A DNA stretch of 41,935 nt from Anaerolineae bacterium (GTDB taxonomy: Bacteria; Chloroflexota; Anaerolineae; JAAYZQ01), in assembly GCA_041559855.1 (NCBI GenBank), contig JBFFCR010000002.1, forward strand, positions 1 to 41,935, in the 5' to 3' direction. Under the pieces are notes generated by a model, which was given only the letters and a program-made list of their open reading frames with translations, did not search any database and was not told where the DNA came from. Positions 23,695-41,903 of this stretch are shown piece by piece (position 1 is the stretch's first letter; each line of letters starts with the position of its first letter). The position numbers and the translations under genes were made by a program.

Positions 23695-25155
23695 ATGAGC
23701 CTCGCCAAGCGGAGTGTAACGTCCGCAGCCTGGAACATCGTCGTCAGCATGGCCCGGGTGCTAGTGCTGATCGTGCGCTCCATCATTCTGGCGCGGTTCC
23801 TGCCAGTGGAGGTATTCGGCATCTATGCCTTTGCCATGTCGATCGTAACCCTCAGTTCGGCGCTTCCCGTCTTTGGGATGTGGGGCGCCTTTATACATCG
23901 AGCGCCGGAAAGTCAGGATGAGGAGGAGCTGGCAGCCGTCCACTTCACCCTGAAAGGGTTATTCACCCTCGGGTGGATGGCTATTCTGTTGGGCATCGCC
24001 CATTTCTTCACCAAGGGAGAAACTCGGGTCGCCTTGACCTTGCTGACGCTGGTCTACGGAGGTACGCACCTTGCCCAGACACCTCGGCTGATCCTCACTC
24101 GGCGCGTCGTACACCGTCGCATGGCTTTCTTGCAGCTCATTGATGCCATCCTCTCCAGTGTCCTGGCCATCGCCCTGGCCTGGCGTGGCGTCACACTGTG
24201 GGCGCTCCTCGCCACCGACATCGTCACCCTCGTAGTCACCATTTTGGGGCTCTACGTGTGGCGGCCCGTGTGGCTACCCCGCCTGGCCTGGTCGGCACCA
24301 ATTGTCCGCTACTTGCTCAGCTTTGGTGGCCGAACCTTTATAGCTGATGTTCTGGCACGGGCCCTGGATCGGGTGGATGACCTTTGGACCGGCCTGGCGC
24401 TCGGCGAAACCGCACTGGGGTTCTACTCCCGGGCATACACTTTTGCTATCTACCCCAGATTCATCCTTGCCATGCCCATCAACAACGTCGCAGGCGGCAC
24501 CTACGCCGAGCTGAAAGGCGACCGGCCGCGCCTCTCCAAAGCATTCTTTCGCACCAACGCCTTCCTGGTGCGAACTGGCTTCCTCTTGGGCGGGCTGCTC
24601 GCTTTGCTCGCCCCCGAATTCATCCACCTGGCCCTCGGTGACAAGTGGCTCCCCATGCTCACCGCTTTTCGGCTCATGCTCGTATACACCCTCTTCGATC
24701 CAATCAAGCTCACCGTCGCTGACGTCCTGACCGCCTCAGGATCGCCGGGGAAGGTGGTTCGAGCACGGGCCATCCAATTGGTCGTGCTCGCCGTTGGGCT
24801 CGTTAGCCTGGGTCCGTGGTTGGGCATCGCCGGTGTCGCCATCGCAGTGGACGCCATGTTGGTTGTGGGCATCGGGATCCTGCTTTGGCAGGTTCGTGCC
24901 TACGTGGACTACTCCATCAAGCGGCTGCTCTTCGTACCGTTCATTGCCTTGTTGGCAGGCATTGGTCTTGCCTCGGCAGCTGCGGCCATTTCTGGCCTGC
25001 AGAGTTCATACTGGCTCAGCGGCGCGACCAAAGCCGTCGTTTTTGCAGGCGCCTATTCGGCGATCGTCCTGCTAGTGGAACGACGCGAGATCCCGCGCTA
25101 CGTCAGCTTGCTGCGGCAACTGACGCCTGCGCAAGTTCGAGAAGATGGAGACTGA
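23695..25155 (+). CDS. Wzx-type oligosaccharide/polysaccharide flippase (MOP superfamily)
   Basis: 486 aa with about 12-14 TM helices. The N-terminus AAWNIVVSMARVLVLIVRSIILARFLPVEVFGIYAF is typical of polysaccharide biosynthesis/export (Wzx) proteins. Confidence 0.85.
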   Translation: MSLAKRSVTSAAWNIVVSMARVLVLIVRSIILARFLPVEVFGIYAFAMSIVTLSSALPVFGMWGAFIHRAPESQDEEELAAVHFTLKGLFTLGWMAILLGIAHFFTKGETRVALTLLTLVYGGTHLAQTPRLILTRRVVHRRMAFLQLIDAILSSVLAIALAWRGVTLWALLATDIVTLVVTILGLYVWRPVWLPRLAWSAPIVRYLLSFGGRTFIADVLARALDRVDDLWTGLALGETALGFYSRAYTFAIYPRFILAMPINNVAGGTYAELKGDRPRLSKAFFRTNAFLVRTGFLLGGLLALLAPEFIHLALGDKWLPMLTAFRLMLVYTLFDPIKLTVADVLTASGSPGKVVRARAIQLVVLAVGLVSLGPWLGIAGVAIAVDAMLVVGIGILLWQVRAYVDYSIKRLLFVPFIALLAGIGLASAAAAISGLQSSYWLSGATKAVVFAGAYSAIVLLVERREIPRYVSLLRQLTPAQVREDGD

Positions 25156-26095
25156 CATGACTCGACCCATCTTTGTCGTGGGCTCTGACAGATCGGGCAC
25201 CACACTTCTGCGACTAATGCTGACCTGCCATCCTGATGTCGCGATTCCACCAGAGAGCCTGTTTGCGCTTGACTTGTACCCCGCCTGGGGCAATGTTCGC
25301 CTAAAGGATGCTGAACAGATCCAGTCACTCTGCGACGAACTGTACGCCGACGAGACGTTCAGGGAATGGCGCGTGGCACGTGCCAACCTTGAAAAGACGA
25401 TCATGGGGCACCTGCCTCTGAGCTATGCCGAGTTCGTCGATCTTGTATACTTGACCTATGCACACCAACATCAGCCAACAGCGGTGCGCTGGGGCGACAA
25501 GAACCCAAGGTACGCCATGCACTTGCCATGGGTATGGCACCTCTTCCCTGACGCCAGGGTTATCCACATTATCCGGGACGGTCGCGCTGTCTTTAGCTCC
25601 TTCAGGGAGGCAAATCGCAAGGCCGGAATGACGATCTGGCCCGAGACAGTGAGCGCCGCAGCACGCAGTTGGACCATTCGATTGACTACAGCATGGCAGC
25701 ACCGGACCAACCCCAACTATGCGGAGGTATTCTACGAAAACCTGGTTCAAGCGCCCGAGACCGAGCTGCGTCAGCTGTGCGCATTCCTTGACCTTGAGTA
25801 CAACCCTGGCATGCTTGACTTCGCAGAGATGAACCGCAAGGAACAGCTGGTACCCAGGCATCGGCTTGCCTGGCACAGTGCCACCTTGAGGCCCGTGCAG
25901 GATTCAAAGGTGGCAGCGTGGCAAGACGCACTGAGTGCTTCTGATGTCGCACGATTCGAGTTGATGGCAGGGCATCACCTCGTCAGATGTGGCTACCCAA
26001 TCAGAGCAGGTAGACTCGGGCGATTTCGGATCGTGAACACGCTTTCGCTGTACGGGGCCACACTCTTGAGGAAGCTTCGCAGTGTGCACACGTGA
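25145..26095 (+). CDS. Sulfotransferase (RSGTT-type PAPS-binding loop)
   Basis: 316 aa. The 5'-PSB-like motif is PIFVVGSDRSGTTLLRLML and the 3'-PB-like motif is VIHIIRDGRAVFSS. It is a paralogue of the 31487-32452 gene. An alternative start at ATG 25157 has GGAG 6 nt upstream. The ATG at 25145 overlaps the flippase stop by 11 nt. Confidence 0.85.
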   Translation: METDMTRPIFVVGSDRSGTTLLRLMLTCHPDVAIPPESLFALDLYPAWGNVRLKDAEQIQSLCDELYADETFREWRVARANLEKTIMGHLPLSYAEFVDLVYLTYAHQHQPTAVRWGDKNPRYAMHLPWVWHLFPDARVIHIIRDGRAVFSSFREANRKAGMTIWPETVSAAARSWTIRLTTAWQHRTNPNYAEVFYENLVQAPETELRQLCAFLDLEYNPGMLDFAEMNRKEQLVPRHRLAWHSATLRPVQDSKVAAWQDALSASDVARFELMAGHHLVRCGYPIRAGRLGRFRIVNTLSLYGATLLRKLRSVHT

Positions 26096-26149: not shown

Positions 26150-27520
26150 ATGAGCCAATGCAAGAACATCCTGATCGTGGTTTTCGACTGTCTGAGGCCC
26201 GATCATCTGTCCAACCTGGGCTATCACGGTACACACACGCCTACCTTTGACCGGTTTGCCAGCGAAGGCACGCTGTTTACCAATGCATATTGCCAGGCAC
26301 CCAACACCTGGATCTCGCACGCCAGTCTGTTCACGGGATGCAATCCTTACGTACATGGCGTGAGGACACCCACGAGGAAGCTGTCGCAGGACCTCAGGGT
26401 GATGGCCGAGGTATTCCGCGAGGCCGGGTACGCTACTTTCGGACTCCCCGCGATGTCGCTGTTGAGCCCCGAAGCCGGTTTCGCGCGAGGGTTTGACGAG
26501 TATATCCTCGATGGCCTGCGCAGCGAGCCCGGGGTCCTGGCACATCGCTACGATCGCACCGCTGACGAGACCCTGGCTCGAACCAGAGACTGGATCCGCA
26601 GAGTCTCCCCGCCCTTCTTTGGGTGGATACATTACTTTGGCACCCACAAAGTCGAGGACCATCTCTTCGATCTGCCCGAGGACTTTCGGCGCAGCCACTC
26701 GCCCTACGCACAATACTACGATGGCAAGGTCTCCTTCGCCGATCAGCGATTCCTATCACCTCTGGTGGACGAGCTGTCCGCACTGGGTCTACTGGAGGAC
26801 ACGATTGTGGTGCTATGGAGCGACCATGGCGAAGACTTGCACGCCATAGAGCATGGCCGCAACTGGGGGCACAATTGGGGGCTCACCGAGGAAGTCATGC
26901 GGACCGTACTCATCATGAGGGGCCCGGGACTATCGGCCGATAGGCACGAGGGCCTTGCCAGAAGCATCGACATCTTTCCCACCCTTGTTGACCTTGTTGG
27001 CCTTCGTCCGCTTCCCCAGTTCGAGGGCAGGTCGTTGGTCCGAGATAGTCTCACGCCCGAAGATGCAGTCTACATGGAGAATCTGTGCCAAGGGTTCGCA
27101 GCTATACGCAGAGGAAGATACAAGCTGGTGCTCGCAGAGCGCAGCCCGACGGAGGAAGGAAGCTGGAGGTGGAAGGCGTCCCTTGTGCGCAAGACCGTGA
27201 GGCAGGTGATGCCAGCGGGCGTGAAGAGACTGCGCCACAGGCTGCGCCGCACGGACGTCTCGATCTGGTGTAGCACAGAGGGTGAGCCCGAGGAGGTGAT
27301 GCAGAGACTCCTTGAGCGTGGCATCACCAGCCTGTACGATCTCGAAGCCGATCCGGACGAGCGCTATGACCTGGCCGCCACCAAGCCAACGCTGGTCGGG
27401 GAGTTGCGGCAATGTTTGACCGAAATCATAGAACGCACGGCGCACAGCACCGAGATGAGCATGAGTGATGAGGACCGTGAGCAAATCGAGGAGCGTCTCA
27501 GGGGTCTTGGCTATCTCTAA
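26150..27520 (+). CDS. Sulfatase-fold (alkaline-phosphatase superfamily) protein that lacks the C/S-x-P-x-R formylglycine motif
   Basis: 456 aa with no signal peptide or TM helix. The metal-site motifs are NILIVVFDCLRPDHL and VVLWSDHGEDL, and SIDIFPTLVDLVGL is also present. Where CxPSRxSLLTG is expected, the sequence reads NTWISHASLFTG (Thr53, nt 26306-26308). Confidence 0.85.
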   Translation: MSQCKNILIVVFDCLRPDHLSNLGYHGTHTPTFDRFASEGTLFTNAYCQAPNTWISHASLFTGCNPYVHGVRTPTRKLSQDLRVMAEVFREAGYATFGLPAMSLLSPEAGFARGFDEYILDGLRSEPGVLAHRYDRTADETLARTRDWIRRVSPPFFGWIHYFGTHKVEDHLFDLPEDFRRSHSPYAQYYDGKVSFADQRFLSPLVDELSALGLLEDTIVVLWSDHGEDLHAIEHGRNWGHNWGLTEEVMRTVLIMRGPGLSADRHEGLARSIDIFPTLVDLVGLRPLPQFEGRSLVRDSLTPEDAVYMENLCQGFAAIRRGRYKLVLAERSPTEEGSWRWKASLVRKTVRQVMPAGVKRLRHRLRRTDVSIWCSTEGEPEEVMQRLLERGITSLYDLEADPDERYDLAATKPTLVGELRQCLTEIIERTAHSTEMSMSDEDREQIEERLRGLGYL

Positions 27521-27596: not shown

Positions 27597-28262
27597 GTGA
27601 GAATCTCTCATGGATACCATTTCGTATTCCTGGCCTATCCCAGAACGGCAAGCAAGTCAGTTCGAGCGCTGCTTGATCCCTACTCGGACATCCAGGGCGT
27701 GCACCCCACAAGAACCGGGCGCAAGCACCCGTTCGCACAACATATGACTGCCAAGGAAGCGAAAGCCATCTTTGATCAGAACGGGTGGGACTGGTTCAGC
27801 TACCGGCGCTTTTGCTTCGTCCGGAATCCCTATACGCGGGTTGTTTCTCTGTACCATCACCACCGAAGCATGCGGACGCGGAGAGCCCCAGGCTTCGCTC
27901 CCATACCCAGGATCAAAGCACTCGTAAAGTACCGGCTGGAGCGTCCAAAGTCATTCAAAGAGTATGTCCTCACCCTTGAAAAGCATCAAGGCATGACCAT
28001 GCCACTCTATGACTTTATCCACGACGATGCTGGGATCTGCCTAGTAGACGATGTGCTCAAGTTTGAGGAGCTGACGGACGAGCTCCCGGGCTACCTGAGC
28101 CAACTGGGGATACAGATCCGACACGAGGACATTCCTATGGTTGGGTCGTCAGACATCCGGGAGTACAAGAGCTTCTACGATTCGGAGACTCGGGGCTTTG
28201 TCCAGAGCTTCTATCGGTACGAACTCGACCGATTCGGATATAGCTTCGAGGACATGAACTAG
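27597..28262 (+). CDS. Putative sulfotransferase (family-2-like)
   Basis: 221 aa. The GTG start has an AAGGAG RBS 7 nt upstream. The N-terminal HFVFLAYPRTASKSVRALL resembles the P-K/R-T-x-S/T PAPS loop of Sulfotransfer_2-type enzymes. Also contains FCFVRNPYTRVVSLYHH (3'-PB-like, RNP...S). The assignment is moderately confident. Confidence 0.65.
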   Translation: MRISHGYHFVFLAYPRTASKSVRALLDPYSDIQGVHPTRTGRKHPFAQHMTAKEAKAIFDQNGWDWFSYRRFCFVRNPYTRVVSLYHHHRSMRTRRAPGFAPIPRIKALVKYRLERPKSFKEYVLTLEKHQGMTMPLYDFIHDDAGICLVDDVLKFEELTDELPGYLSQLGIQIRHEDIPMVGSSDIREYKSFYDSETRGFVQSFYRYELDRFGYSFEDMN

Positions 28263-28311: not shown

Positions 28312-29145
28312 GTGATCGACATACTGGAGAGACGGCAGCGCGAGGCAGTACGCTGGTTCCACAGTCTGAGCGTGAACCGCGCGCGGGCCAGTCACCCGGG
28401 TCCCCGGGTGGTAGCCAACAGCATACCAAAGGCGGGCACGCACCTTCTTACTCGTTGCCTCCACCTGTTCCCCGACATCGAGGACTCGGGCTTGCGCATC
28501 CGGGGTCGCGTAAGGTACAAGGCCCTCAAGAAGCGCCTGAATCAGGTTGGCGGAGGATGCTTCATACCCTTGCATCTCTTCTTCACACCCCGGAGAGAGC
28601 AGCTTCTCACCGACTTGGCCTTCGCCATGGTTCTGATCACGCGCGATCCGCGGGACATTGCCACCTCCCACTTCCATTACGTCGCGCATGGGGCTCGGCT
28701 CCATCAGCTTCGAGGCTACTACCAAGCCCTTCCCGATGATTCCGCCAGACTCATGACCTCCATTCAGGGCATTCCCCAATCTGAATGGCGAGATCGTGTA
28801 CGCCTGTCGGACATCAACCGCAGATGCCGCGCTTTCCTGGACTGGGCGGATCGTGGTGCCTGCGTTGTGCAGTTCGAAAAGCTAGTCGGACCGCTGGGCG
28901 GCGGGACGCAGGAGGAGCAGCGTGGCGAGATTAGTAAGGTAGCCAGGCATCTAAACCTGGAGCTGGACCCTGCAACACTGAACCACATTGCCTCCAACGT
29001 GTATTCTCGCAAAACCTCAACCTTCCGCAAGGGCACTATCGGCGATTGGGCAAATCACATGGCGCCAGAGCACAAGGCAGCCTTCAATGAGGTCGCGGGC
29101 CAGCTCTTGATCGACCTCGGGTATGAAGCGGATGATAACTGGTAG
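28312..29145 (+). CDS. Sulfotransferase (PKxGT-type, Sulfotransfer_1-like)
   Basis: 277 aa. The GTG start has an AAGGAGAG RBS. The 5'-PSB motif is ANSIPKAGTHLLTRCL and the 3'-PB motif is VLITRDPRDIATSHFHY. Confidence 0.8.
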   Translation: MIDILERRQREAVRWFHSLSVNRARASHPGPRVVANSIPKAGTHLLTRCLHLFPDIEDSGLRIRGRVRYKALKKRLNQVGGGCFIPLHLFFTPRREQLLTDLAFAMVLITRDPRDIATSHFHYVAHGARLHQLRGYYQALPDDSARLMTSIQGIPQSEWRDRVRLSDINRRCRAFLDWADRGACVVQFEKLVGPLGGGTQEEQRGEISKVARHLNLELDPATLNHIASNVYSRKTSTFRKGTIGDWANHMAPEHKAAFNEVAGQLLIDLGYEADDNW

Positions 29146-29208
29146 ACGAACCGGGCATGCCGTTGCTGGCTCGCGACGCCAGGGCGCAGGTCATTGGGAA
29201 GGCGCACC

Positions 29209-30501
29209 GTGAACATCCTGCAGATCAGTTCAGCTGCCGACTCGGGCGGCGCGGGCGTTGCGATGGCACGCCTGCACCGCGCCTTGAATCGCCAGGGACA
29301 CCACTCGCACACAGTGGCTCGGCTCCGGAGGACGCCCCAACCCGGCGTGCTGACCCTCCCCGAGGCCTTGAGCGCAGGGCAGTCGCTCGTGCATCGCTCA
29401 ATCAACAATGCACGCATGCAACTCGATGCTTGGTTCAGCCTCCCTCGGGTGTACCGGTCGACCGAGCAGCTCCTCCACACAGCACTATTCAAGAAAGCTG
29501 ACGTCGTCCAGTTGCACAACCTGCACGGCTTCTACTTTAACTATGATTTGCTGCCCAAGATCTCCAGACTCAAGCCAGTCGTCTGGACATTGCATGACAT
29601 GTGGGCCCTGACGGGGCACTGTGCCTATTCCTACGATTGCGAGCGCTGGCAGACAGGCTGCTTCAGTTGCCCCCTCTTGCGCGGCAAAGGCCGCCAGCTG
29701 GTCGAGCCCAGGCCAACCCTGCTTGACCGCACAGCCATGCGGTGGCAGAAGAAGAAAGACCTCTACAGGAACAGCAAACTGCACATCGTGACGCCCTCGC
29801 TGTGGCTTGCCGGAAAGGTCCAGAGGAGCACGCTTGCTGGTGCCCTGAGCATCCAATGCATTCCCAATGGCGTTGACCTGTCGGTGTTCTGTCCCACGGA
29901 CCAAGCATCCGCGCGCGAGACCCTGGGAGTTCCACACGGGGCAAAGGTGCTCCTATTCGTCGCTGCCAAGGTCACCCAGGGCCGGAAAGGACTGGCTTAC
30001 CTATACAAAGCCCTTCATCTCCTCCGACAGACCAAGGAACTCGTCGTTTTGACCGTTGGCAGTGCGGGGCGCGACCTTGACGAGATCCCAGGCTATGAGC
30101 AGATCCACCTAGGGCAGCTGACCGAAGAGAGGCGGATCAACCTGGCGTATTGCGCTGCAGATCTGTATGTGCTGCCCACGCTGGCGGACAACCAGCCACT
30201 GACTGCCGTCGAGTCACTCGCGAGCGGCACGCCTGTCGTCTGCTTCGACGTCGGCGGCCTGCCCGAGACGGTGCAACATATGCGCACCGGATACCTGGCC
30301 CGTTGCGGGGACGCGGCCGATCTGGCAACCGGAATGCGCATGCTGCTGGAGGACGACGGCCTCCGGGCGCGGATGCGCAGCAACTCCAGGGACTTTGCGC
30401 TAGCTCATTACGCCCTTGAGGAACAGGCCAATCGTTATGTCGAGATCTACGAACATGCGGTCCACACTCAGCGGCGACTCGCAGAGGGTTCGGACCTATG
30501 A
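29209..30501 (+). CDS. Glycosyltransferase, GT-B fold (GT4-like)
   Basis: Contains VNILQISSAADSGGAGVAMARLH and the C-terminal EX7E-type region LYVLPTLADNQPLTAVESLASGTPVVCFDVGGLPETV. The track ORF begins at TTG 29194. The GTG at 29209 follows GGGAAGG and gives the usual N-terminus. Confidence 0.85.
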   Translation: MNILQISSAADSGGAGVAMARLHRALNRQGHHSHTVARLRRTPQPGVLTLPEALSAGQSLVHRSINNARMQLDAWFSLPRVYRSTEQLLHTALFKKADVVQLHNLHGFYFNYDLLPKISRLKPVVWTLHDMWALTGHCAYSYDCERWQTGCFSCPLLRGKGRQLVEPRPTLLDRTAMRWQKKKDLYRNSKLHIVTPSLWLAGKVQRSTLAGALSIQCIPNGVDLSVFCPTDQASARETLGVPHGAKVLLFVAAKVTQGRKGLAYLYKALHLLRQTKELVVLTVGSAGRDLDEIPGYEQIHLGQLTEERRINLAYCAADLYVLPTLADNQPLTAVESLASGTPVVCFDVGGLPETVQHMRTGYLARCGDAADLATGMRMLLEDDGLRARMRSNSRDFALAHYALEEQANRYVEIYEHAVHTQRRLAEGSDL

Positions 30502-31448
30502 AAGGCAAACCGCTGGTCTCTATCGTCACGCCATCGTTCAATCAGGGCCGTTTCCTCCGGGAAACCATCGAGTCGGTCCTGGCACAGACCTACGAGCCAA
30601 TTGAGTACCTTGTGATCGACGGCGGCTCTGACGACAATAGCGTCGAGATCATCCACAGTTACGCCGACCGCCTGGCCTACTCAGTTTCCGAGCCCGATCG
30701 AGGCCAGTCCCACGCCATCAACAAGGGGCTCCGGCGGTGCACGGGATCCATCATCGGATGGCTCAACTCAGACGATACTCTGATGCCTGACACAGTGGCT
30801 CGAGTCGTTCAAGCCATGCAGGAACCTCCCATGGTTGTCCATGGCAGTGTTCGTCTCATCGATGCTGAAGGCAAAATCGTCGCCCGACCAAAACTGGCCA
30901 AGCGCAACCAGGAGTTTGGCCTCCAGACCATCGTTGGCGAAGGTCTCGTGAACCAGCCCGGTGCCTTTTGGAACCGCGCCGCAATGGACTGTGCCGGCGT
31001 CCTAAACGAAGGCCTGAACTACATCATGGATTATGAGCTGTGGGTTCGTATGGCCTTGCGTGGTGTCCAGTTCAGACGTCTTGCAGACCCGCCTTTCGCC
31101 ACATACCGGCTGACCAGCGACACCAAGACCGTGGGCGCACTGTTCAAGGTAGGGCTGGAGAAGCTCGCTGTACTTGACCAGCTTCTGTCCGATCCCGAAC
31201 TGCCGCGAAAGACTGGCCTTTCGCCGGCAGAGCTCGAGCGCCAGGCAAATCGGGCGCGCGCCCTCGCCAGCCTGAAAGTGGCCCGAGGCTATGCACGCCT
31301 GCCAGAGCGGCGCCCTGAGGCGTTGCGCTGGCTGGCTCGGGCCGCCTGGTTGTGGCCGCCCTGCTTGCTGCTGGCACCCGAGCAACTTGCCAAGCGCCTG
31401 TGGGTGGGCCTGCGTACCCGTCTCGGCGCCGAACCGCCCACCTGGTAG
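30498..31448 (+). CDS. Glycosyltransferase family 2
   Basis: 316 aa. Contains VSIVTPSFNQGRFLRETIESVLAQTY, YLVIDGGSDDNS and WLNSDD (DxD). Its ATG overlaps the upstream stop (ATGA, 4-nt overlap). Confidence 0.9.
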   Translation: MKGKPLVSIVTPSFNQGRFLRETIESVLAQTYEPIEYLVIDGGSDDNSVEIIHSYADRLAYSVSEPDRGQSHAINKGLRRCTGSIIGWLNSDDTLMPDTVARVVQAMQEPPMVVHGSVRLIDAEGKIVARPKLAKRNQEFGLQTIVGEGLVNQPGAFWNRAAMDCAGVLNEGLNYIMDYELWVRMALRGVQFRRLADPPFATYRLTSDTKTVGALFKVGLEKLAVLDQLLSDPELPRKTGLSPAELERQANRARALASLKVARGYARLPERRPEALRWLARAAWLWPPCLLLAPEQLAKRLWVGLRTRLGAEPPTW

Positions 31449-33745: not shown

Positions 33746-33754
33746 TGCTATAAT
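33746..33754 (+). promoter_or_regulatory. Candidate internal promoter with an extended -10 (TGcTATAAT) upstream of the SDR/Wzy-fusion/WecA/dehydrogenase genes
   Basis: TATAAT is at 33749-33754 with TG at 33746-33747. It sits inside the only sizeable intergenic gap (216 nt) of the plus-strand block. It shares the 9-mer TGCTATAAT with the 20018-20026 element. The -35 is poor. Confidence 0.35.
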
Positions 33755-33877: not shown

Positions 33878-34858
33878 ATGAGAATTCTCGTTACGGGTGG
33901 GGCAGGCTATATCGGATCCAACCTCGTAGATGCCTTGCTGTCTGGCGGTCACAGCGTAGCTGTCGTGGACAACCTCTCCACCGGCAGGATCGCCAACATA
34001 CAGCACCTGCTCGGCCATGAGCGCTTTCGCTTTGTCAATGACACCATCCTCAACGAACCACTGATCGACCGCCTGATTGCAGACGTCGACCAGGTATATC
34101 ACCTGGCTGCAGTGGTAGGGGTCAAGTACGTCCTTAGCGACCCCCTCCAAGGCATCAAAACCAATATCGCCGGAACGGAACTCGTTCTCCACCATGCTCG
34201 CAGGCATTGGAAGCGAACCGTCGTCGCATCAAGCTCAGAGGTATATGGCAAGAACCCCAACCTGCCCTGGTCAGAAGAGGACGACTGCCTACTGGGTTCC
34301 ACAGACGTCAGGCGATGGTCCTACGCCTTGTCCAAGGCCATTGACGAGCACTGCGCCCTAGCGCACGCGCGAGATGGACTTCCTGTGTCCGTCGTGCGGT
34401 ACTTTAACTCCTACGGTCCTCGTCTCAATGCAAGCGGCTATGGCAGCGTCGTAGCCAGATTCATCAGTCAGGCACTGGCGGGCCAGCCGATAACAGTATA
34501 TGGCGATGGGTTACAGACTCGCTGTTTCACCTACGTAACGGACACAGTGCGCGGCACCATGCTGGCGGCGACCGTGCCCGAGGCCACCGGCAAGGTATTC
34601 AACATCGGCGCCGACGGGGAGATCACCATCGCCGCTCTGGCCGAGTTGGTGCGCGCCCTGGCGGGCTCCGACTCTGCCATCGTCAATGTCCCCGTCGAGG
34701 ACGTCTTCGGCGAGCGCTTTGAGGAAACGCGACGCCGAGTGCCGGACGTACGACGGGCAGCCGACGTGCTTGGTTTCCGGGCCGCCACGCCGCTTGAGGA
34801 CGGACTGCGAGCCACCATCGATTGGTTCCGGCAAACTGGGTCCGCCGCTGGCGGATAG
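33878..34858 (+). CDS. NAD-dependent epimerase/dehydratase (extended SDR; UDP-glucuronate decarboxylase/UXS-like)
   Basis: Contains MRILVTGGAGYIGSNLV (Rossmann fold), SSSEVYG, YALSKAIDE (YxxxK) and FNSYGPRL...ARFISQALAGQPITVYGDGLQTRCFTYVTD. The track ORF starts at GTG 33788. ATG 33878 gives the canonical N-terminus. Confidence 0.88.
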   Translation: MRILVTGGAGYIGSNLVDALLSGGHSVAVVDNLSTGRIANIQHLLGHERFRFVNDTILNEPLIDRLIADVDQVYHLAAVVGVKYVLSDPLQGIKTNIAGTELVLHHARRHWKRTVVASSSEVYGKNPNLPWSEEDDCLLGSTDVRRWSYALSKAIDEHCALAHARDGLPVSVVRYFNSYGPRLNASGYGSVVARFISQALAGQPITVYGDGLQTRCFTYVTDTVRGTMLAATVPEATGKVFNIGADGEITIAALAELVRALAGSDSAIVNVPVEDVFGERFEETRRRVPDVRRAADVLGFRAATPLEDGLRATIDWFRQTGSAAGG

Positions 34859-34932: not shown

Positions 34933-37900
34933 ATGCGAACCAGACTGGGAGCTATTTGCGATAAGATAATCGAGGCAGGGTGGCTTGCCGCCATCATCAT
35001 CGTGCCCTTGTTCTTCAACATCCACACCAACCGGGTTTTCGAGCCCGACAAGCTCTCCCTACTCCGCTCCATCGCCCTAGTAATGGCCGCAGCCTGGCTG
35101 ATCCGGGCCGTCGAGGATTGGCGCACTGGCTGGGAGCCGGATGGGTTGGGCGGAAGGGAGATACCGTTTCTGCAGCGCGTCTACAGGACTCCCCTGGTCA
35201 TACCCACGCTGCTGCTGGTGCTGAGCTATTTGATCAGCACGGTCCTCTCGATTGCCTGGAGGCTCAGCCTGCTAGGGAGCTACCAGCGACTGCAGGGCAC
35301 CTATACCACCCTTGCCTACATCGTGATTTTTTTCCTCATGCTCGAGGGACTGCGGACAAAGCGGCAGTTCAACCGCATCATCAACACTGCCATTGTGGTC
35401 AGCTTTCCTATCGCCCTCTATGCATTGATCCAGCACTTTGGGCTGGATCCACTGCCCTGGGGAGGCAACGTCACCAAGCGCGTTGCCTCGACCATGGGCA
35501 ATGCCATCTTTGTCGGCGCCTACATGATCATGATCGTACCCCTAACCTTGACCAGGCTCATGGAAAACTGGAAAGAGGCTACCGGCCACATTCAGACCCG
35601 CGACATCCTGCTGGGTGGACTGGCCTTCATTCTCCTGGTCATTGTCCTCTTGGTCGCCATGCTCTGGCACCCAAAAGGTGGGATGGCTTGGATACGATGG
35701 GTGGGTCTCTTGGTCGGTATCGCGCTGGAGATACTGATCTACGCCCTCAGCCCGGCTGAAGGCCGGTCCAAGATACTGGCCATCTCCCTGCCCCTTACCT
35801 TTGCCTTCATGGTAGGATTCCTCTGGGTCCTGGAAATCGTCATCCCGACAGCAGACCCAACCAAGTCGTTCTGGTTTGGCCTCGGTGCCGTGTTCGTCTT
35901 TCTGTTGGCCATGGCGCTCTTTGCCTACTACCTGCGCAAATCCGTTGCACGGTTGCTCCTACTAGCCGGCTACTTTGTCATCCTCATTGCACAGGTCATA
36001 TCCATCTTCTACACCCAGAGCCGCGGACCCGCGCTCGGCCTGCTCGCGGGTCCGCTTGTCTACTTGGCCGTGACTGGCCTGGCAAAGCGAAGGATCTGGC
36101 TGACTTGGGCAGTCAGCACGTTGGCGGTCACCGCGGCGCTGTTCCTCGTCATCTTCAACACCGTTGACTCGCCCCTCATGGACACACTGCGCGAAGTTCC
36201 CTACATCGGGCGGCTGGGTAAGGTGCTGCAAACCGAGGAAGGCACCGGCCGCGTGCGCATCCTGATTTGGGAGGGCGTCACCGAACTGATGGACTGGCAC
36301 GAGCCCCTCGAAACGCCGGGTGAGGATGGGGGACCCGATGCACTCAATGCACTGCGACCGATCATTGGCTATGGCCCAGAGGCCATGTATGTAGCGTTCA
36401 ACCGCTTCTACCCACCCGAGCTCGCCCATTTCGAGAAACGGAACGCCTCGCCCGACCGTTCTCACAACGAAACCTTTGATGCCCTTGTGACCAGGGGCTA
36501 TCTCGGCCTGGCAGTGTACCTGTTCCTCTTCACCAGCGTCTTCTACTTCGCCTTCAAGTGGTTGGGCTTCATCCGTGAGAACTGGCAGAAGATAGCATTC
36601 CTGGCCTCCTGGGCAGTCGGAGGCCTCCTTGGCACGGTCGGATTTTGGGCGTGGCGGGGACCAGCCTATGTCAGCGTGGGGCTGCCCATAGGCGCCCTCT
36701 TGGGCCTTGCGGTCTACCTCCTGATCCTGCTACTGCATGCGACGTTCTGGCAGGGAGACTGGCGAGAGTCCCGCGGGTGGCGTAAGGCAGCCTTCGTCGG
36801 CTCGTGGATCAGCGGGATCGTGATTGGCTCCGCTGGCTTGTGGGCATCGCATGTACCTAACTACTTCGCTGTAGGTGTACTCATCCCAGCAACTGTGGGA
36901 CTCTTGCTCTACTTCTTTACCGAGTTCTTCGCTGCGGTTCGCGGACCTTCGGCAGAACCAGCAAAGGGCGGACACTGGCACATTTGGCTTATTGCGTTGC
37001 TCGCAGCCGCCGTCGCCCACTTTGTCGAGATCCAGTTCGGAATCGCCATTGCTGCCACGCGCACCTACTTCTGGGTTGCAGCCGCCATGTTGGTGGTGCT
37101 TGGCATTCGCTTCGCATCGCAGCCCGATGAGACAGAGACCGCAACACAGGAGGAGAAACAGGATCGAGATCTGATCCGAACCACATCACGTCGGCGTCGG
37201 CGCAGAGCTTCTCGAGCCCCAGCTAGAAAGCCGGCACCGAATCTCGAGTGGCTGGGCTCACTCATCGTCCTGAGCATTCTGGCAATCCTGATCGTTGGCA
37301 CCATGTTCTTCGACTGGACCGTCCCGCTCGCCAAAGAGTCGAGCCCGCTTACTACCATCTGGAAGTCGCTCACCGAGGCAGACGGAAAGACCTCTTTGGT
37401 CATGCTTGCCCTCTTTGCGGCTACCTGGCTTATGCTTGGCATCGTGGGCCTGGCAGAGCTGGCGACCAGCGATGAGTCCGCGAACAAGACGCGCGGGGAC
37501 TGGCTGAAGGCAGCAGGCATCTTCGCCTTGGCGTCCTCTGTCGGCGCTCTCGTTTATGCCATCTTCCACGCAGCGAACCTCGATCCGGCCTCGGTCACGG
37601 CCACTGGCATCATCGAGGACAATCCGGTGGTAGGTGCCGTCACAACCTACTTTGGTTTCCTTCTGGCCATCATTCTCGTCCTGGCTGCGGCACTCGCTAT
37701 GTTGTTCCGGCGCTGGACCATGCCCTGGCGATGGATCGGGAAGCTGCGTGATGTCGGCGTGATCGTATCGCTGGTGCTCGCTCCTGTCGTTGCCATTGTG
37801 CTGATCTTTGTCACGAACATCCGCATCGTCAGTGCTGACATCTGGTACAAACAGGGGCTTAGTTCGGAGCGCCTTGATCAATGGGACTTGGCCATGGAGT

Positions 37901-39495
37901 TCTATTCCGGAGCTACCAACTTGGCCGAGGATGAGGATTTCTACTACCTGTTCCTGGGCAGAGCCCTCTTGCAGAAAGCGGGGACCGTCAGCGGCGCGGC
38001 TAGGGTATCGTGGCTGCTAGAAAGCGAGAGAGCCCTGCAGACCGCCGTTGAGCTCGCGCCCCTGAATCCGGACCACTCGCGCAACCTCTCCAAACTCTAT
38101 CTGACTTGGGCGGGGTTCAGCACAGGAGAGCAGCGTGCGGAGCTCGTCGAAAAGGCTCTTGTCTACTCCGACCAGGCCATTGCCCTCAGCCCCAACACCG
38201 CCGACATCTGGAACGAGCGAGCCCAGATCTATGCCACTGTGGGCGACGTCGAGAAGGCCAAAGAAGTCTACGAGGAGTCATTGGCCGTCGACGACGAGTA
38301 CGCAAGGACCCATCTCTCCTTGGGCGAGCTGTACGAGACCCAGGAGCGGTGGGCAGATGCTGCCGCAGAGTACTCAAGAGCCAAGGAGCTCAACCCCAAA
38401 CTCATTGAGGCATACAGCGATCTGGGCAACGCGTACCTGCAAATGGGCGACGTCGAGAAGGCCAAAGAAGTCTACGAAGAGTCATTGGCCATCGATGACG
38501 AGTACGCAAGGACCCATCTTTTCCTGGGCAGGCTGTACGAGGCCCAGGAGCGGTGGGCAGATGCTGCCGCAGAGTACTTGAGAGCCATCGAGCTCAACCC
38601 TAAACTCACCGAGGCATACAGCGATCTGGGCAACGCGTACCTACAAATGGGCGACCTGGAGCGCGCACTTGAGGCCTATACTATCGCTGCCAAGGCCAAC
38701 ACCAGCAACCCCATCGCCCACGGCGCACTTGCCTATATCTATACTATGCTAGGCGATGCTGACCGCGCAATCACTGAGAACCTCGCCGTCATAGATCTGC
38801 TTCCTGACGACTATAATAGCTACAGGAATCTCGCAGTCCTCTATGGACAGGAAGGTGACATCGTCAAAGCACTATCCGCGGCCGAAAAGGCACTGACCCT
38901 GGCGTCAGAAGAGGACGTCACATGGTTGGAACAATACATCGAGGAGCTAAGAACCATGCTAAGCAGTTCATCGTCTACCGCCCGTAACGGCATGTACAGC
39001 GCACCGCCACCCTTGGTTATCGATCCCACGAAATCCTATCAGGCCACCATCGTCACCGAGAAGGGAGACATCGTCATAGAGCTGTACGCCGATCGCGTGC
39101 CCACCACCGTCAGCAACTTTGTCTTCCTCGCACGTGAGGGATTCTACGACGACACCACCTTCCACCGCGTCATTCCCGGATTCATGGCCCAGGCAGGCGA
39201 TCCCCTCGGTACAGGCACTGGTGGACCAGGCTATACCTTCGCGGACGAGTTCGACGAGACGCTCCGCCACGACGGCCCTGGCGTTCTCTCGATGGCCAAC
39301 CGCGGCGCCAACACCAACGGCAGTCAGTTCTTTATCACCTACGCTGCCACAGACTGGCTGGATGGGCGTCACGCCGTCTTTGGGCGCGTGATCGAGGGTA
39401 TGGACGTTCTCAACTCGCTCACGCCACGCGATCCGGGCGCCAACCCCGGATACGAGGGCGACGCCATCCTTACTATCCGCATTCAGGAAGACTAA
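34933..39495 (+). CDS. Giant fusion protein: Wzy/O-antigen-ligase-like polytopic domain, a second multi-TM region, a TPR array, and a C-terminal cyclophilin-type peptidyl-prolyl isomerase
   Basis: 1520 aa. The Wzy_C-type motif is [20 protein letters not shown] (about nt 36005-36065). About 20 or more hydrophobic helices extend to about aa 970, interrupted by a basic loop, [16 protein letters not shown] (about nt 37180-37225). The TPR repeats span about nt 37840-38940. The cyclophilin domain reads [42 protein letters not shown]...[23 protein letters not shown]...[14 protein letters not shown]. Confidence 0.9.
38242..38649 (+). repeat. In-frame tandem duplication of 2 x 204 bp (2 x 68 aa, i.e. 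two TPR pairs) inside the giant fusion gene
   Basis: Unit 1 (38242-38445) and unit 2 (38446-38649) both begin GGCGACGTCGAGAAGGCCAAAGAAGTCTACGA. I counted about 17 mismatches in 204 nt by eye (about 92% identity). The protein units are [68 protein letters not shown] and [68 protein letters not shown]. Confidence 0.9.
39025..39492 (+). other. Cyclophilin-type PPIase domain (C-terminal ~155 aa of the fusion protein); boundaries approximate
   Basis: See the motifs listed for the 34933-39495 gene. The domain starts near [17 protein letters not shown] (Tyr codon at 39037). Confidence 0.85.
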
Positions 39496-39507
39496 CCGGT
39501 GAGTTGA

Positions 39508-40551
39508 ATGAACGCCACTTTCCTGCTCATCTTTGCCAGCGCACTGGTGATGGCCATCGGCGGCACACCATTGATTCGCCGTGTCGCTATCCGGCTTGGC
39601 GTCATCGACGAACCTAACGCGCGCAAGATCCACACCGACCCTATCCCCCTACTGGGCGGTGTGGCAATCTATGGGGCGTTCATCGCTGCCCTATTGCTAT
39701 TTGGCAGCCGCTACCGTCTTAATGAGTTGGTCAGCATCCTCGTGGGAGCCAGTCTCATGTCCTTCTTGAGTGTGTGGGACGATCGACAAGGCCTCAGTCC
39801 GCTGCTAAAGCTCGCGGGGCAGTTTCTTGCCGCATCGATCCTCGTGATCTCGGGTGTGTACATCGGCACCTTCCCATGGGAAGCGCTCAACATCGCTCTG
39901 ACGCTCCTCTGGGTCGTCGTCGTGACCAATGCCATGAACCTACTGGACAACATGGACGGCTTGTCCGGAGGTGTGGGCGCAGTGGCTGCCGTCTTTTTCC
40001 TGCTGTTGGCAGCCATGAACAACCAGTACCTGGTGGGCGCCCTGTCAGCAGCCCTGGTGGGAGCCTGCCTTGGGTTTCTCGTCTACAACTTTAATCCGGC
40101 CAGCATCTTCATGGGCGATGCCGGGGCTCTATTCCTCGGATTCATCCTGGCAGCAGTGGCCATCAAGCTACGCTTCCCCGAGGGCGTCCAGATTGTCACC
40201 TGGATGGTGCCGGTCCTGATCCTCGGCCTACCCCTCTTTGACACGGCGATGGTCATCGTCTCAAGGCTGCGCAGAGGGTACAACCCGCTCACCACCCCAG
40301 GCAAGGACCATGTCTCTCACCGGCTCGTGGCCTTGGGCTATACGCGACGGGAAGCGGTGCTCATCTGCTACTTGATCTGCGCTGGCTTGGGCATCATTGC
40401 CTTGTTCATCACACAGGCAAACATCCTGGAGGGCTACATCGTGGGCGGTATCATGGCCCTCGTCGGTTTGGCGGCTCTTGTTCGGCTGGAGAGGATAGAC
40501 TTTCCAGGCAAGCAAGCAAGAGGCGACTTATTCAAGCGAAGAGGCCACTGA
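39508..40551 (+). CDS. Polyprenyl-phosphate N-acetylhexosamine-1-phosphate transferase (MraY/WecA/TagO family)
   Basis: 347 aa with about 10-11 TM helices. Contains [33 protein letters not shown] and [21 protein letters not shown]. Confidence 0.9.
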
Positions 40552-41903
40552 TGGACGCTCTGGCGCGCAAGATCGCGGATAGGTCAGCCCGCGTGGCGGT
40601 CATCGGGCTCGGATACGTCGGCCTGCCCCTTGCTGTAGGCTTTGCCAGGGCAGGCTATCAGGTGCTGGGTCTGGACGTGGATGAGCGCAAGCTCGCCGCA
40701 CTGAGCGAGGGCCGATCCTACATCCAAGACGTGGCGAGTCCCGATATCATGGCTGTTGTGCAAGCCGGCAGGCTATCCGCCACCAGCAACTACGATCTGC
40801 TTGCCCGGACCGATGCGATATTCATCTGTGTTCCCACGCCTTTCGACGCCATGAAAGCGCCTGACCTCTCCTACATCGAGGAGGCAGCTCGGGGAATTAC
40901 CGCGCGTCTGAAAGCAGGCCAGCTCATCGTCCTGCAGAGCACGACCTATCCTGGCACGACCGAGGAGTTTGTGCTTCCCATCCTTGAGGAGTCGGGACTC
41001 AAGGCAGGAGAGGACTTTTGCCTGGCCTTTTCACCTGAGCGTATCAACCCGGGAGATCGCGAGTACTCTGTGGAGAACACGCCCAAAGTTGTGGGCGGTG
41101 TGACCCCTCGATGTTCTGAATTGGGGCGCATGTTGCTCCTCGAACTGTTTCCCCACGTGCACGTTGTCAGCTCTACTCGCGCCGCCGAGATGTCCAAGCT
41201 GCTCGAAAACATCTTTCGCAGTGTCAACATCGCGCTGGTCAACGAGTTGGCTCTCCTGTCCGAACGGATGGGCATCGATATGTGGGAGGTTATTGAAGCA
41301 GCAAAGACCAAGCCTTTTGGCTTCATGCCCTTCTACCCAGGCCCGGGCGTCGGCGGTCACTGCATACCGGTGGATCCCTATTACCTCAGCTGGAAAGCCC
41401 GCGAATACGACTTTTACACCAAGTTCATCGAGTTAGCGGCCGAGGTGAACCAGACGATGCCCTACCATGTGGTAGACCTTATCGCCCAGGCGCTGAGCGC
41501 GGCTGGCAAGCCACTCGATGGGGCGCAGGTCTTGGTACTAGGAGTCGCATTCAAGCGCGACACCGACGATGCCCGTAATTCACCTGCAGAGCGGATTATC
41601 GAGCTGCTGCTCAGACGAGGTGCCCAGGTCGAGTACAGCGATCCCCTTGTGCCACGATATCCCGTCGGGCGCGATGTCTTCTTCCCGGCAGAGCGCCTGC
41701 TCGAGAGCGTAGAGTTGACAGACCAGACTCTCAAGGATGCGGACTGTGTGGTCATTCTCGCCGCACACCGAGCGGTGGACTATGCTCGGGTCATGCGACA
41801 GACAGAGCTGATCGTGGATGCGGTCAACGCCACCCACGGCCTGAGCGGGACTGCCCGTGTTGTACGCATCGGCGCACCGGCGCCACCCCTAAAGCCTCGA
41901 TGA
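40551..41903 (+). CDS. Nucleotide-sugar 6-dehydrogenase (UDP-GlcNAc/UDP-ManNAc dehydrogenase-like: WecC/WbpA/Cap5O family)
   Basis: 450 aa. Contains VAVIGLGYVGLPLAVGFARAGY (Rossmann fold), the catalytic-Cys region GPGVGGHCIPVDPYYL and VLGVAFKRDTDDARNSPA. Its start overlaps the upstream stop by 1 nt (TGATG). Confidence 0.9.
   Translation: MDALARKIADRSARVAVIGLGYVGLPLAVGFARAGYQVLGLDVDERKLAALSEGRSYIQDVASPDIMAVVQAGRLSATSNYDLLARTDAIFICVPTPFDAMKAPDLSYIEEAARGITARLKAGQLIVLQSTTYPGTTEEFVLPILEESGLKAGEDFCLAFSPERINPGDREYSVENTPKVVGGVTPRCSELGRMLLLELFPHVHVVSSTRAAEMSKLLENIFRSVNIALVNELALLSERMGIDMWEVIEAAKTKPFGFMPFYPGPGVGGHCIPVDPYYLSWKAREYDFYTKFIELAAEVNQTMPYHVVDLIAQALSAAGKPLDGAQVLVLGVAFKRDTDDARNSPAERIIELLLRRGAQVEYSDPLVPRYPVGRDVFFPAERLLESVELTDQTLKDADCVVILAAHRAVDYARVMRQTELIVDAVNATHGLSGTARVVRIGAPAPPLKPR

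Follow-up and report, generated by a model that had tools for sequence, protein, structure and literature searches.

The window, that is, the whole stretch of 41,935 nucleotides analysed here, derives from an uncultured member of the Anaerolineae (Chloroflexota). According to gene calls and family matches, it contains a cluster of 13 genes on a single strand (23695-41903, + strand) that is probably complete for a surface sugar polymer bearing several sulfate groups. The genes listed in a preliminary description of this DNA were all recovered where it had placed them, on the + strand, and each scores above the Pfam gathering threshold for its claimed family. Intergenic gaps range from -4 to 76 nt, with a single exception of 216 nt. 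Two of the overlaps that had been read as translational coupling are real, namely ATGA at 30498-30501 between the genes for GT4a and GT2 and TGATG at 40549-40553 between the WecA-like and dehydrogenase genes (40551 in the preliminary description), whereas that between the genes for Wzx and ST-A (25145/25155) hinges on the start codon chosen: the first ATG of the ST-A reading frame is at 25145, while the start in the deposited gene model and in most orthologues, 25157, lies one base past the Wzx stop. The first gene of the cluster, as in all syntenic relatives, encodes a Wzx-type MOP flippase of 486 aa (23695-25155, + strand; PF13440, 137.8 bits; PF01943, 63.8 bits) with multiple hydrophobic segments in a hydropathy scan.

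Four sulfotransferases from three Pfam families are encoded in the cluster, and, as had been claimed, all four pass the Pfam thresholds and retain PAPS-binding motifs. ST-A (312 aa; 25157-26095, + strand; PF13469, 135.8 bits) is a Sulfotransfer_3 protein of the TPST-CurM-NoeE-XssE clade, and ST-D (31487-32452, + strand; PF13469, 134.3 bits) is its paralogue, with 36% identity; the motifs RSGTT and RDGR...S of ST-A, together with E33, are invariant in 19 homologues. ST-B (221 aa; 27597-28262, + strand) belongs to the Sulfotransfer_2 family (PF03567, 36.2 bits, cut-off 22, with a full-length model match) and carries PRTASKS and RNPYTRVVS; P[RK]T[AG]S and RNPxxRxxS are kept across 32 homologues. 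Although the weakest-scoring of the four, ST-B has a sulfotransferase fold judging from its AF2 model (pLDDT 91.8), whose best 50 matches in a fold search of the PDB are all PAPS sulfotransferases or their close kin. ST-C (277 aa; 28312-29145, + strand) is a SULT-like Sulfotransfer_1 protein (PF00685, 40.9 bits, cut-off 22), of which residues 36-262 align to mouse SULT7A1 with PKAGTH, IPLHL with its catalytic His, TRDPRDIATS and FRKGTIGDW all kept.

In related Anaerolineae the locus occupies a fixed chromosomal site between an M24 peptidase gene and dehydrogenase/DedA genes. Relatives keep both ends, and the middle is a variable cassette of the kind seen in serotype loci: five different cassettes were observed at this site, each with 4-6 sulfotransferases, so that the sulfation pattern and side groups are expected to differ between strains. 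ST-D is kept at the 3' side of the cassette, where a GT4 glycosyltransferase gene (GT4b) adjoins it in the related loci L002, L008, L011, L092 and L103, and the downstream module of SDR, fusion protein, WecA-like enzyme and dehydrogenase is conserved in contigs with a differing upstream cassette. In more distant relatives that share the 3' module, no sulfotransferases were found in the ~3-4 kb visible upstream, which suggests that sulfation is a clade-specific add-on.

It might be asked whether these enzymes act on glycans at all. The nearest solved relatives of ST-A and ST-D are protein-tyrosine and polyketide sulfotransferases rather than carbohydrate ones (about 92 bits for the former and 88 bits for CurM in profile comparison), and ST-C is similar to the SULTs that act on small molecules in the cytosol. 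Non-glycan substrates are accordingly conceivable for one or more of the four, such as tyrosines of secreted proteins or peptides, a small molecule or a lipid; the genes would then lie among glycan genes by coincidence. We regard this as very improbable, because all four genes are interleaved with glycosyltransferase genes downstream of Wzx on a single strand, every cassette variant at the site has its 4-6 sulfotransferases among glycan genes, and neither peptide precursor nor PKS genes were found nearby. Moreover, ST-A and ST-D are homologous to members of carbohydrate systems, namely XssE from pSYSM (28% identity, E 1e-23 for ST-A; 26% identity, E 5e-25 for ST-D) and the Nod-factor sulfotransferase NoeE, whose NCBIfam model is the only one that they match (59 and 52 bits, respectively, against an equivalog cut-off of 500). 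In the hydropathy scan, transmembrane segments and hydrophobic N-termini were absent from the sulfotransferases, the glycosyltransferases and the sulfatase-fold protein; a cytoplasmic location of these proteins therefore fits, in line with the earlier prediction for the sulfotransferases.

The sulfatase-fold protein (26150-27520, + strand; PF00884, 125 bits; PF01663, 42 bits) is a predicted cytoplasmic enzyme of the alkaline-phosphatase superfamily with Thr53 as its nucleophile. Its AF2 model (pLDDT 88.6) finds its best Foldseek matches among S1 carbohydrate sulfatases (TM 0.60-0.67), with which it shares the two-subdomain fold and the metal-binding Asp and Asp-His positions. However, T-W-I-S-H aligns with the C-x-P-S-R of solved sulfatases, Thr thus replacing the Cys/Ser nucleophile and the Arg being replaced by His or, in homologues, other residues; Thr53, D13, D225 and H226 are invariant across 29 homologues, down to 32% identity. 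Since the C/S-x-P-x-R formylglycine motif is absent and the invariant Thr53 stands at the position of the formylglycine Cys, we rejected the identification as a formylglycine sulfatase. A Thr nucleophile in this superfamily is typical of phosphoryl-transfer enzymes, for example NPP, LtaS and EptA. The protein also departs from S1 sulfatases in being cytoplasmic and in belonging to biosynthetic rather than degradative loci, all seven of its independent contexts being glycan-assembly clusters. In four of the seven the gene lies among sulfotransferase genes, directly adjoining one in L094 and L101; this, with the fold, would suit an enzyme that serves sulfation directly, by trimming sulfates (editing) or by hydrolysing the inhibitory by-product PAP/PAPS, in a sulfation/desulfation cycle. 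Such a role seems to us improbable given the Thr nucleophile, and the other three contexts have Wzm/Wzt and glycosyltransferase genes with no sulfotransferase within 8-10 kb. Because relatives of the protein are found in glycan-assembly clusters whether or not sulfotransferases are present there, the protein provides no evidence for desulfation, and the enzyme most likely carries out a separate, phospho-ester-type modification or processing of the nascent glycan.

Synthesis of the glycan itself is represented by three glycosyltransferases, an initiating enzyme and two nucleotide-sugar enzymes. GT4a (29194-30501, + strand; PF13692, 80.8 bits; PF00534, 78.9 bits; PF13439, 49.7 bits) has a 51% identical homologue just after the sulfatase-like gene in L094, an ABC-type cluster; it is followed by GT2 (30498-31448, + strand; PF00535, 107.7 bits) and, beyond ST-D, by GT4b (32465-33661, + strand; PF13692, 105.4 bits). 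A start on HexNAc in a lipid-linked Wzx and Wzy_C-type locus, as proposed earlier, is supported by a WecA-like polyprenyl-phosphate HexNAc-1-phosphate transferase as primer (39508-40551, + strand; PF00953, 120.4 bits), which has 11 TM-like segments in the hydropathy scan and matches TIGR02380 WecA as its best NCBIfam model, at 132.7 bits and under the equivalog cut-off. The nucleotide-sugar 6-dehydrogenase (40551-41903, + strand; TIGR03026, 432 bits) is of UDP-HexNAc type, its nearest solved relatives being UDP-ManNAcA dehydrogenase, NDP-GalNAcA dehydrogenase and Cap5O. The SDR (33878-34858, + strand; PF01370, 179 bits), with SSEVYG and YxxxK motifs, is UDP-uronate decarboxylase-like: its best solved relative is human UDP-glucuronate decarboxylase UXS1 (212-214 bits; the next family reaches 151). 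Its reading frame opens at 33788; the start is most likely 33878, given the 325-aa gene model in L002. Since a HexNAc-type 6-dehydrogenase is paired with a UXS-like decarboxylase, the uronic acid may be only an intermediate; the latter enzyme could equally use UDP-GlcA made elsewhere in the genome. In Bacillus cereus subsp. cytotoxis, a comparable pairing, of UDP-GlcNAc 6-dehydrogenase with UDP-GlcNAcA decarboxylase, was reportedly described by Gu et al. in 2010 as the route by which UDP-XylNAc is made. A uronic-acid-containing, glycosaminoglycan-like polymer, as suggested in the preliminary description, is therefore not secured, and assembly is by Wzx/Wzy_C rather than by a GAG-type synthase.

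The 1520-aa membrane protein encoded at 34933-39495 (+ strand), described earlier as a Wzy-like fusion protein, does contain a Wzy_C domain (residues 350-454), which at 34.1 bits is barely above the cut-off of 31.7. About 22 TM segments enclose this O-antigen-ligase/polymerase-like domain and are followed by an array matching TPR families and then by a cyclophilin PPIase (Pro_isomerase, 160.5 bits); the last two parts are predicted to lie outside the membrane by a crude hydropathy scan combined with the positive-inside rule. A second Wzy_C-domain membrane protein with 12 TM-like segments, also noted earlier, is encoded at 3234-4769 on the - strand (PF04932, 48.7 bits), 19 kb from the cluster and in opposite orientation, and is a candidate polymerase or ligase partner. 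The fusion protein may be a polymerase, a ligase or an oligosaccharyltransferase; no solved ligase or polymerase matches it in sequence in a way that would separate these functions. In a possible, if rather doubtful, alternative, no exopolysaccharide is built from the sulfated oligosaccharide; instead, the 1520-aa protein would act as a WaaL/PglL-like ligase or O-oligosaccharyltransferase and attach the unit, either as such or once the second Wzy_C protein has polymerised it, to a protein acceptor, for example one of the S-layer or sheath, or to some other acceptor in the envelope. Wzy_C is common to O-antigen ligases and PglL-type O-oligosaccharyltransferases according to its Pfam description, TPR arrays and cyclophilins are protein-directed modules, a second Wzy_C gene exists at 3234-4769, neither the cluster nor the region just after it was found to encode a chain-length regulator, and the constancy of the 3' module under differing cassettes fits relaxed glycan specificity. 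On the other hand, the analysis identified no protein that would serve as acceptor, the crude scan is the basis of the topology, and the uncharacterised family to which the protein belongs is huge (959 representatives at E<=1e-30, most of them with TPR tails) and offers no studied member from which a function might be transferred. Nor was an export protein found.

Neither the window nor the flanking regions in close relatives contain PAPS synthesis genes (cysC, sat/cysDN). The ST-A family is tied to PAPS supply by other phyla, in which 5 of 80 loci with ST-A homologues have cysC or cysDN no more than 10 kb away. At least 450 loci, in species-representative genomes of many phyla, encode homologues of ST-A; PAPS-dependent glycan sulfation, which had been called rare, is so among characterised cases but not in genomes, and its rarity in bacteria is experimental rather than genomic. 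To our knowledge, sulfated surface-polymer chemistry in bacteria has been shown experimentally almost only for cyanobacteria. In agreement with the earlier statement that no such pathway has been characterised in this kind of organism, no paper in the literature searched ties Anaerolineae to it.

Taken together, we consider it reasonably probable that the product of the cluster is a lipid-linked surface heteroglycan with several O-sulfate groups, assembled along a Wzx/Wzy_C-type route similar to the one for synechan. The steps follow from family membership, while the sulfotransferase motifs and fold and the absence of export signals were computed directly. The WecA-like enzyme would transfer HexNAc-1-phosphate to undecaprenyl phosphate at the cytoplasmic face, and GT4a, GT2 and GT4b would extend it, the simplest product being a tetrasaccharide. 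The dehydrogenase would make a UDP-HexNAc-uronic acid, and the SDR may turn a UDP-uronate into a pentose (Xyl or XylNAc) by decarboxylation. Sulfate esters would be added before flipping by the four soluble PAPS-dependent sulfotransferases; Wzx would then flip the sulfated unit, and the Wzy_C-domain protein, its TPR and cyclophilin parts predicted to face outward, would polymerise it or ligate it to an acceptor.

Comparison with known systems helps to place this proposal. In rhizobia, too, soluble cytoplasmic enzymes (NoeE, NodH and LpsS) transfer sulfate from PAPS to bacterial glycans, but ST-A and ST-D score far below the NoeE equivalog cut-off, and the rhizobial substrates are lipo-chitooligosaccharides or LPS. 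Dedicated PAPS genes, nodPQ, accompany the rhizobial sulfotransferases, unlike those of the Anaerolineae cluster. Also comparable are two putative non-cyanobacterial sulfated-polysaccharide clusters, wps-1 of Actinoplanes missouriensis, for which sulfation is inferred (PMC13390465), and that of Pontiella sulfatireligans F21, for which it is shown at bulk level only (PMC7356697). These are also Wzx/Wzy-type or glycosyltransferase-rich EPS loci with sulfotransferase genes, sulfation being inferred in our case too; however, they are from other phyla, have one or two sulfotransferases per locus, and have not been described with a sulfatase-fold gene or a Wzy_C-TPR-PPIase protein (PMC13390465, PMC7356697).

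The experimentally defined synechan (xss) cluster on plasmid pSYSM of Synechocystis sp. PCC 6803 (PMC8205485) also relies on Wzx/Wzy-type assembly of a repeat unit sulfated before flipping by cluster-encoded soluble sulfotransferases, as is predicted for the Anaerolineae cluster. The two Wzx flippases show a distant relationship (25% identity, E 7e-11), and XssE has homologues in ST-A and ST-D (26-28% identity, E about 1e-24). In contrast, xss has two sulfotransferases rather than four from three families, initiates with the bacterial sugar transferase XssP rather than a WecA-type (PNPT) enzyme, and includes the PCP XssK and the regulators XssQ/R/S (PMC8205485), of which, as of XssA, no counterpart was found in the Anaerolineae cluster. 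The latter is chromosomal, lies in Chloroflexota, and adds the Thr-type sulfatase-fold enzyme, the pair of UXS-like enzyme and HexNAc dehydrogenase, and the Wzy_C-TPR-cyclophilin fusion. We conclude that the locus credibly belongs to a synechan-type sulfated-polysaccharide pathway, in a phylum new for such a pathway.

The 13 genes at 23695-41903 of the window, all on the forward strand, probably encode a lipid-linked pathway of the synechan type, by which this Anaerolineae bacterium would make a surface heteroglycan with several sulfate groups; this is the reading that the sequence evidence supports best. The order begins with a Wzx flippase (23695-25155), the sulfotransferase ST-A (25157-26095; Sulfotransfer_3), a sulfatase-fold protein (26150-27520) and the sulfotransferases ST-B (27597-28262; Sulfotransfer_2) and ST-C (28312-29145; Sulfotransfer_1). 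It continues with a GT4 glycosyltransferase (GT4a, 29194-30501), a GT2, the fourth sulfotransferase, ST-D (31487-32452; Sulfotransfer_3), a second GT4 (GT4b, 32465-33661) and a UXS-like SDR (33878-34858), and ends with a 1520-aa fusion of Wzy_C, TPR and cyclophilin domains (34933-39495), a WecA-like phosphotransferase (39508-40551) and an NDP-sugar 6-dehydrogenase. All these family matches exceeded the curated cut-offs in Pfam and NCBIfam scans, which bears out the one-strand gene inventory of the preliminary description. The translational overlaps reported there were found at 30498 (ATGA) and 40551 (TGATG), whereas the one at 25145/25155 hinges on the start codon of ST-A, placed at 25157 in the deposited gene model and in most orthologues.

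Intergenic gaps in the cluster range from -4 to 76 nt, with the sole exception of 216 nt before the SDR, and the G+C content of the window is about 59%. Because terminator-like sites fall mainly within genes, they were not used to delimit operons. The best sigma-70-like site of the region lies in the 216-nt gap (33727-33754; TTCCCA-16-TATAAT with an upstream TG, 10 of 12 positions) and hints at a second transcription unit starting before the SDR, but such matches occur overall at chance frequency (6 found against 5.3 expected). The cluster is complete within the window: its 5' neighbours in relatives are always DUF3048, YjbQ, a hypothetical protein and an M24 peptidase, and on the 3' side of the dehydrogenase an 84%-identical relative (locus L103) has a DedA/VTT gene and, beyond it, unrelated genes on the opposite strand. 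This DedA/VTT-domain membrane protein gene (L103, 11350-11934) begins 12 nt after the dehydrogenase, and the window stops before it; DedA proteins are implicated in undecaprenyl-phosphate recycling.

Our results indicate that all four candidates belong to the sulfotransferases. Each scored above the Pfam cut-offs in the Sulfotransfer_1/2/3 HMM searches that had been proposed as a check, and each carries a phosphosulfate-binding loop (PKxGTT-like) and a 3'-phosphate-binding motif (RxxxxRxxS-like). ST-A and ST-D are paralogues with 36% identity; the RSGTT loop, the RDGR...S motif and the Glu of PPES are invariant in 19 of their homologues. Solved structures hit by their profile include tyrosylprotein sulfotransferases and the sulfotransferase domain of CurM (~90 bits), and their sole NCBIfam match is NoeE, the Nod-factor sulfotransferase. 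ST-C aligns with mouse SULT7A1 over residues 36-262, with PKAGTH, the catalytic His (IPLHL), TRDPRDIATS and FRKGTIGDW kept. ST-B is the weakest of the four (36 bits in Pfam) and had no match in a PDB sequence search. It has the motifs PRTASKS (PKTGS in relatives) and RNPYTRVVS, with P[RK]T[AG]S and RNPxxRxxS kept in 32 homologues, and the best PDB fold matches of its AlphaFold (AF2) model (pLDDT 91.8) are all PAPS sulfotransferases. In addition, a hydropathy scan found no transmembrane segment and no hydrophobic N-terminus in any sulfotransferase, glycosyltransferase or the sulfatase-fold protein, consistent with the earlier proposal that the sulfotransferases act in the cytoplasm.

No PAPS genes lie in the cluster or elsewhere in the window, and no cysC or cysDN homologue was found in the flanks of the window's relatives. 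However, cysC or cysDN, which encode APS kinase and ATP sulfurylase, lies within 10 kb of an ST-A-family gene in 5 of the 80 loci fetched, in other phyla only (cysC in L014, L042, L052 and L080; cysDN in L065), and this linkage supports PAPS dependence of the ST-A family. Single-protein patterns retrieved one distant locus only, so that an alignment-based scan was required for the relatives; with one genome per species, it placed ST-A relatives at 450 loci or more. The phyla among those listed include Planctomycetota, Myxococcota, Actinomycetota, Acidobacteriota, Pseudomonadota, Bacteroidota, Bacillota and Nitrospirota. Sulfation of bacterial glycans had been called rare; this is true of its experimental characterisation, whereas the genomic potential is widespread.

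The nearest homologues of ST-A belong to Anaerolineae MAGs, one of them being annotated as a sulfotransferase family protein of an Anaerolineae bacterium, and the window itself is a contig of an NCBI MAG. Comparison with these relatives shows conserved ends, namely Wzx (with ST-A) on the 5' side and ST-D, GT4b, SDR, fusion, WecA-like transferase and dehydrogenase on the 3' side, and a variable middle. One locus (L002) has the same cassette content as the window. ST-A is swapped for two other sulfotransferases in L092/93, giving five in total; the sulfatase-like gene and ST-C are missing from L003/4/6, where ST-B occurs as two paralogues; in L007-10 a CMP-sugar-synthetase/dehydrogenase/MptE-like set is found together with four sulfotransferases; and in L011 a sulfatase-like gene accompanies five or six sulfotransferases. 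Such variation resembles the cassette exchange of serotype loci, with sulfation retained every time. Furthermore, more distant contigs, whose dehydrogenases are 57-81% identical, have the SDR-fusion-WecA-dehydrogenase module in common and show no sulfotransferase in the few kb visible upstream of it, so sulfation was apparently added in a single subclade.

The gene content also bears on the structure of the product. The dehydrogenase falls in the HexNAc branch, its nearest solved relatives being UDP-ManNAcA dehydrogenase, NDP-GalNAcA dehydrogenase and Cap5O. That the SDR is UXS-like is clear from its 212-214 bits against human UDP-glucuronate decarboxylase, where the next family reaches 151, and it has the active site SSEVYG/YxxxK. 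A HexNAc dehydrogenase is reportedly paired with a UXS-like decarboxylase in the UDP-XylNAc pathway of Bacillus cereus, as it is in the cluster, and by this analogy the uronic acid may be consumed instead of incorporated. With one initiating transferase and three glycosyltransferases, the simplest repeat would be a tetrasaccharide begun on HexNAc, to which four sulfotransferases could add about one sulfate per sugar. The preliminary description called the polymer GAG-like, but the term does not hold for the pathway. GAGs are defined by a disaccharide of an amino sugar with a uronic acid or galactose and by a processive synthase; the cluster has three separate glycosyltransferases with Wzx/Wzy_C and no synthase-type bifunctional glycosyltransferase. 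Because Wzx/Wzy_C assembly is unlike that by GAG synthases, the term could at most describe composition, and the UXS-like enzyme may remove the carboxyl group.

Enzymes for initiation and flipping are present. The WecA-like protein belongs to the polyprenyl-phosphate sugar-1-phosphate transferases (PF00953, 120.4 bits), its top model being TIGR02380 (WecA) at 132.7 bits, under the equivalog cut-off of that model, and Wzx is a MOP-family flippase (PF13440, 137.8 bits). The Wzy_C domain, which polymerases and ligases have in common, scored 34.1 bits in the fusion and 48.7 bits in a second gene on the reverse strand (3234-4769), noted earlier and again found here, against a cut-off of 31.7; PDB sequence searches gave no match for either protein. 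Neither a Wzz/Wzc co-polymerase nor Wza/OPX was found among the window genes or within 10 kb after the L103 dehydrogenase; OPX may be dispensable if the organism has a single membrane, as has been proposed for Chloroflexota. In the fusion, the part up to residue 963 includes about 22 hydrophobic segments, a strongly basic loop spans 723-773, and the TPR-cyclophilin tail is predicted from hydropathy and the positive-inside rule to face outward. The family of the fusion's membrane domain is uncharacterised and very large (959 cluster representatives at E<=1e-30, typically 1000-1500 aa); most checked members have C-terminal TPR tails, and only a subset has the cyclophilin tail. Since these outer modules are protein-directed and the cluster lacks a chain-length regulator, the idea stays alive, although we hold it to be rather unlikely, that the fusion is not a polymerase but a ligase or O-oligosaccharyltransferase that loads the unit onto protein or another acceptor.

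Besides the variable sulfotransferase cassette, the sulfatase-fold protein deserves follow-up. Its AlphaFold (AF2) model (pLDDT 88.6) has a sulfatase fold with the metal site and is nearest to S1 carbohydrate sulfatases (TM 0.60-0.67). However, the segment T53-W-I-S-H aligns with the C-x-P-S-R formylglycine motif of solved sulfatases and does not conform to the C/S-x-P-x-R pattern of the S1 family. Thr53, D13, D225 and H226 are invariant in 29 homologues with identities down to 32%, and the Thr is present in the 32%-identical copy of L011, from another Anaerolineae genome. The reading as a true sulfatase was rejected for this invariant Thr at the formylglycine position. A Thr nucleophile combined with a D/T/D-H metal site marks phosphoryl-transfer enzymes of the alkaline-phosphatase superfamily, for example NPP, LtaS and EptA, and not sulfatases.

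The Thr-type family was found in seven independent genomic contexts, all of them glycan-assembly loci. Sulfotransferases accompany it in four: the window locus with its variant L092; L011; L094, an ABC-transporter-type polysaccharide cluster (6075-21383) with at least six sulfotransferase genes; and L101, a Wzm/Wzt cluster with one sulfotransferase directly upstream of the sulfatase-like gene. The other three (L096-L098, L100 and L102) are Wzm/Wzt clusters with glycosyltransferases or methyltransferases and no sulfotransferase in view, where the sulfatase-like gene (10001-11425, 8001-9386 and 7080-8498) directly follows the Wzm/Wzt (Wzt_C) ABC-transporter genes; one of these contigs is labelled as a Hodarchaeota archaeon MAG, and its gene content looks bacterial. 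In L094, a 54%-identical sulfatase-like gene is followed by a 51%-identical GT4a homologue, and the two genes may move together as a module. The three contexts that lack sulfotransferases weigh against a role as a dedicated PAP phosphatase. As all seven contexts are glycan-assembly loci and only four have sulfotransferases, we take the protein to be an independent enzyme of glycan modification or processing, and its presence speaks for neither desulfation nor PAP removal. The annotation "sulfatase" is misleading within such clusters, and our analysis points to an uncharacterised enzyme family tied to glycan assembly.

Upstream of the cluster, 9-17 kb away on the reverse strand, a hybrid histidine kinase of 2566 aa (6342-14042), which combines ten GAF domains with PAS, HisKA/HATPase and two receivers, adjoins a receiver-GGDEF protein (14105-14989), and this pair might possibly regulate the glycan locus. 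A reverse-strand module of Roadblock/LC7, an MglA-like small Ras-family GTPase and a DUF4388/PatA_N protein (17934-19801) adjoins the glycan locus also in L003, L007 and L092. We did not adopt any of these genes as regulators of the cluster, a conserved neighbourhood being the sole link. The second Wzy_C gene is closely preceded by a tRNA-Sec gene (4825-4923, reverse strand, anticodon TCA, Rfam tRNA-Sec 67.4 bits), and presumably the organism uses selenoproteins. At the left end, a partner-switching-like gene set was assigned by eye on the reverse strand (3-3170): a STAS-like anti-anti-sigma candidate (2832-3170), an anti-sigma kinase-like frame (2263-2772) and a stop-free frame of at least 764 codons (3-2294) that runs off the window.

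A bolder idea joins these threads, and we consider it improbable as a whole: that the invariant-Thr sulfatase-fold proteins are a new cytoplasmic glycan-modifying family serving both Wzx/Wzy and ABC pathways, and that the clade uses them with four to six sulfotransferases to write a strain-specific "sulfation code", the Wzy_C-TPR-cyclophilin enzyme attaching the glycan to envelope proteins. If true, the Thr-type enzymes would attach a phospho-ester-type or other anionic group to lipid-linked glycans, or process one there, and the protein-attached, sulfation-coded glycan would amount to a bacterial counterpart of sulfated proteoglycans.

Recent papers report bacterial sulfated polysaccharides essentially from cyanobacteria only (PMC8205485, PMC13390465). 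Beyond these, there is a genetic hint from Actinoplanes (PMC13390465), a sulfated GAG-like EPS from Pontiella at the bulk level (PMC7356697), and, in granular sludge, sulfated glycoconjugates from unknown sources (PMC10483923); which organisms and enzymes produce the sulfated GAG-like polymers of granular sludge and sediments is stated to be unknown (PMC10483923, PMC7356697). In a mat study, both Chloroflexi MAGs were without sulfotransferases (PMC9723792). Among the searchable papers, none was found to link Anaerolineae to sulfotransferase clusters, in agreement with the earlier statement that no such pathway was known to be characterised in this kind of organism. The locus offers a complete and compact one-strand candidate pathway from Chloroflexota, and its natural variants, which differ mainly in their sulfotransferases, are a ready panel for heterologous expression and for finding carbohydrate sulfotransferases of differing regiospecificity. 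Closest among the known systems is synechan, which was characterised in Synechocystis (PMC8205485) and has now been transferred to Synechococcus by heterologous expression (PMC13125312). Both ST-A and ST-D are homologous to XssE, a sulfotransferase of the synechan (xss) cluster (E ~1e-24); for its other sulfotransferase, XssA, the best match reached only 1e-5 over a partial stretch. The kind of pathway is already known, and Chloroflexota would join it as a phylum with no case described before.
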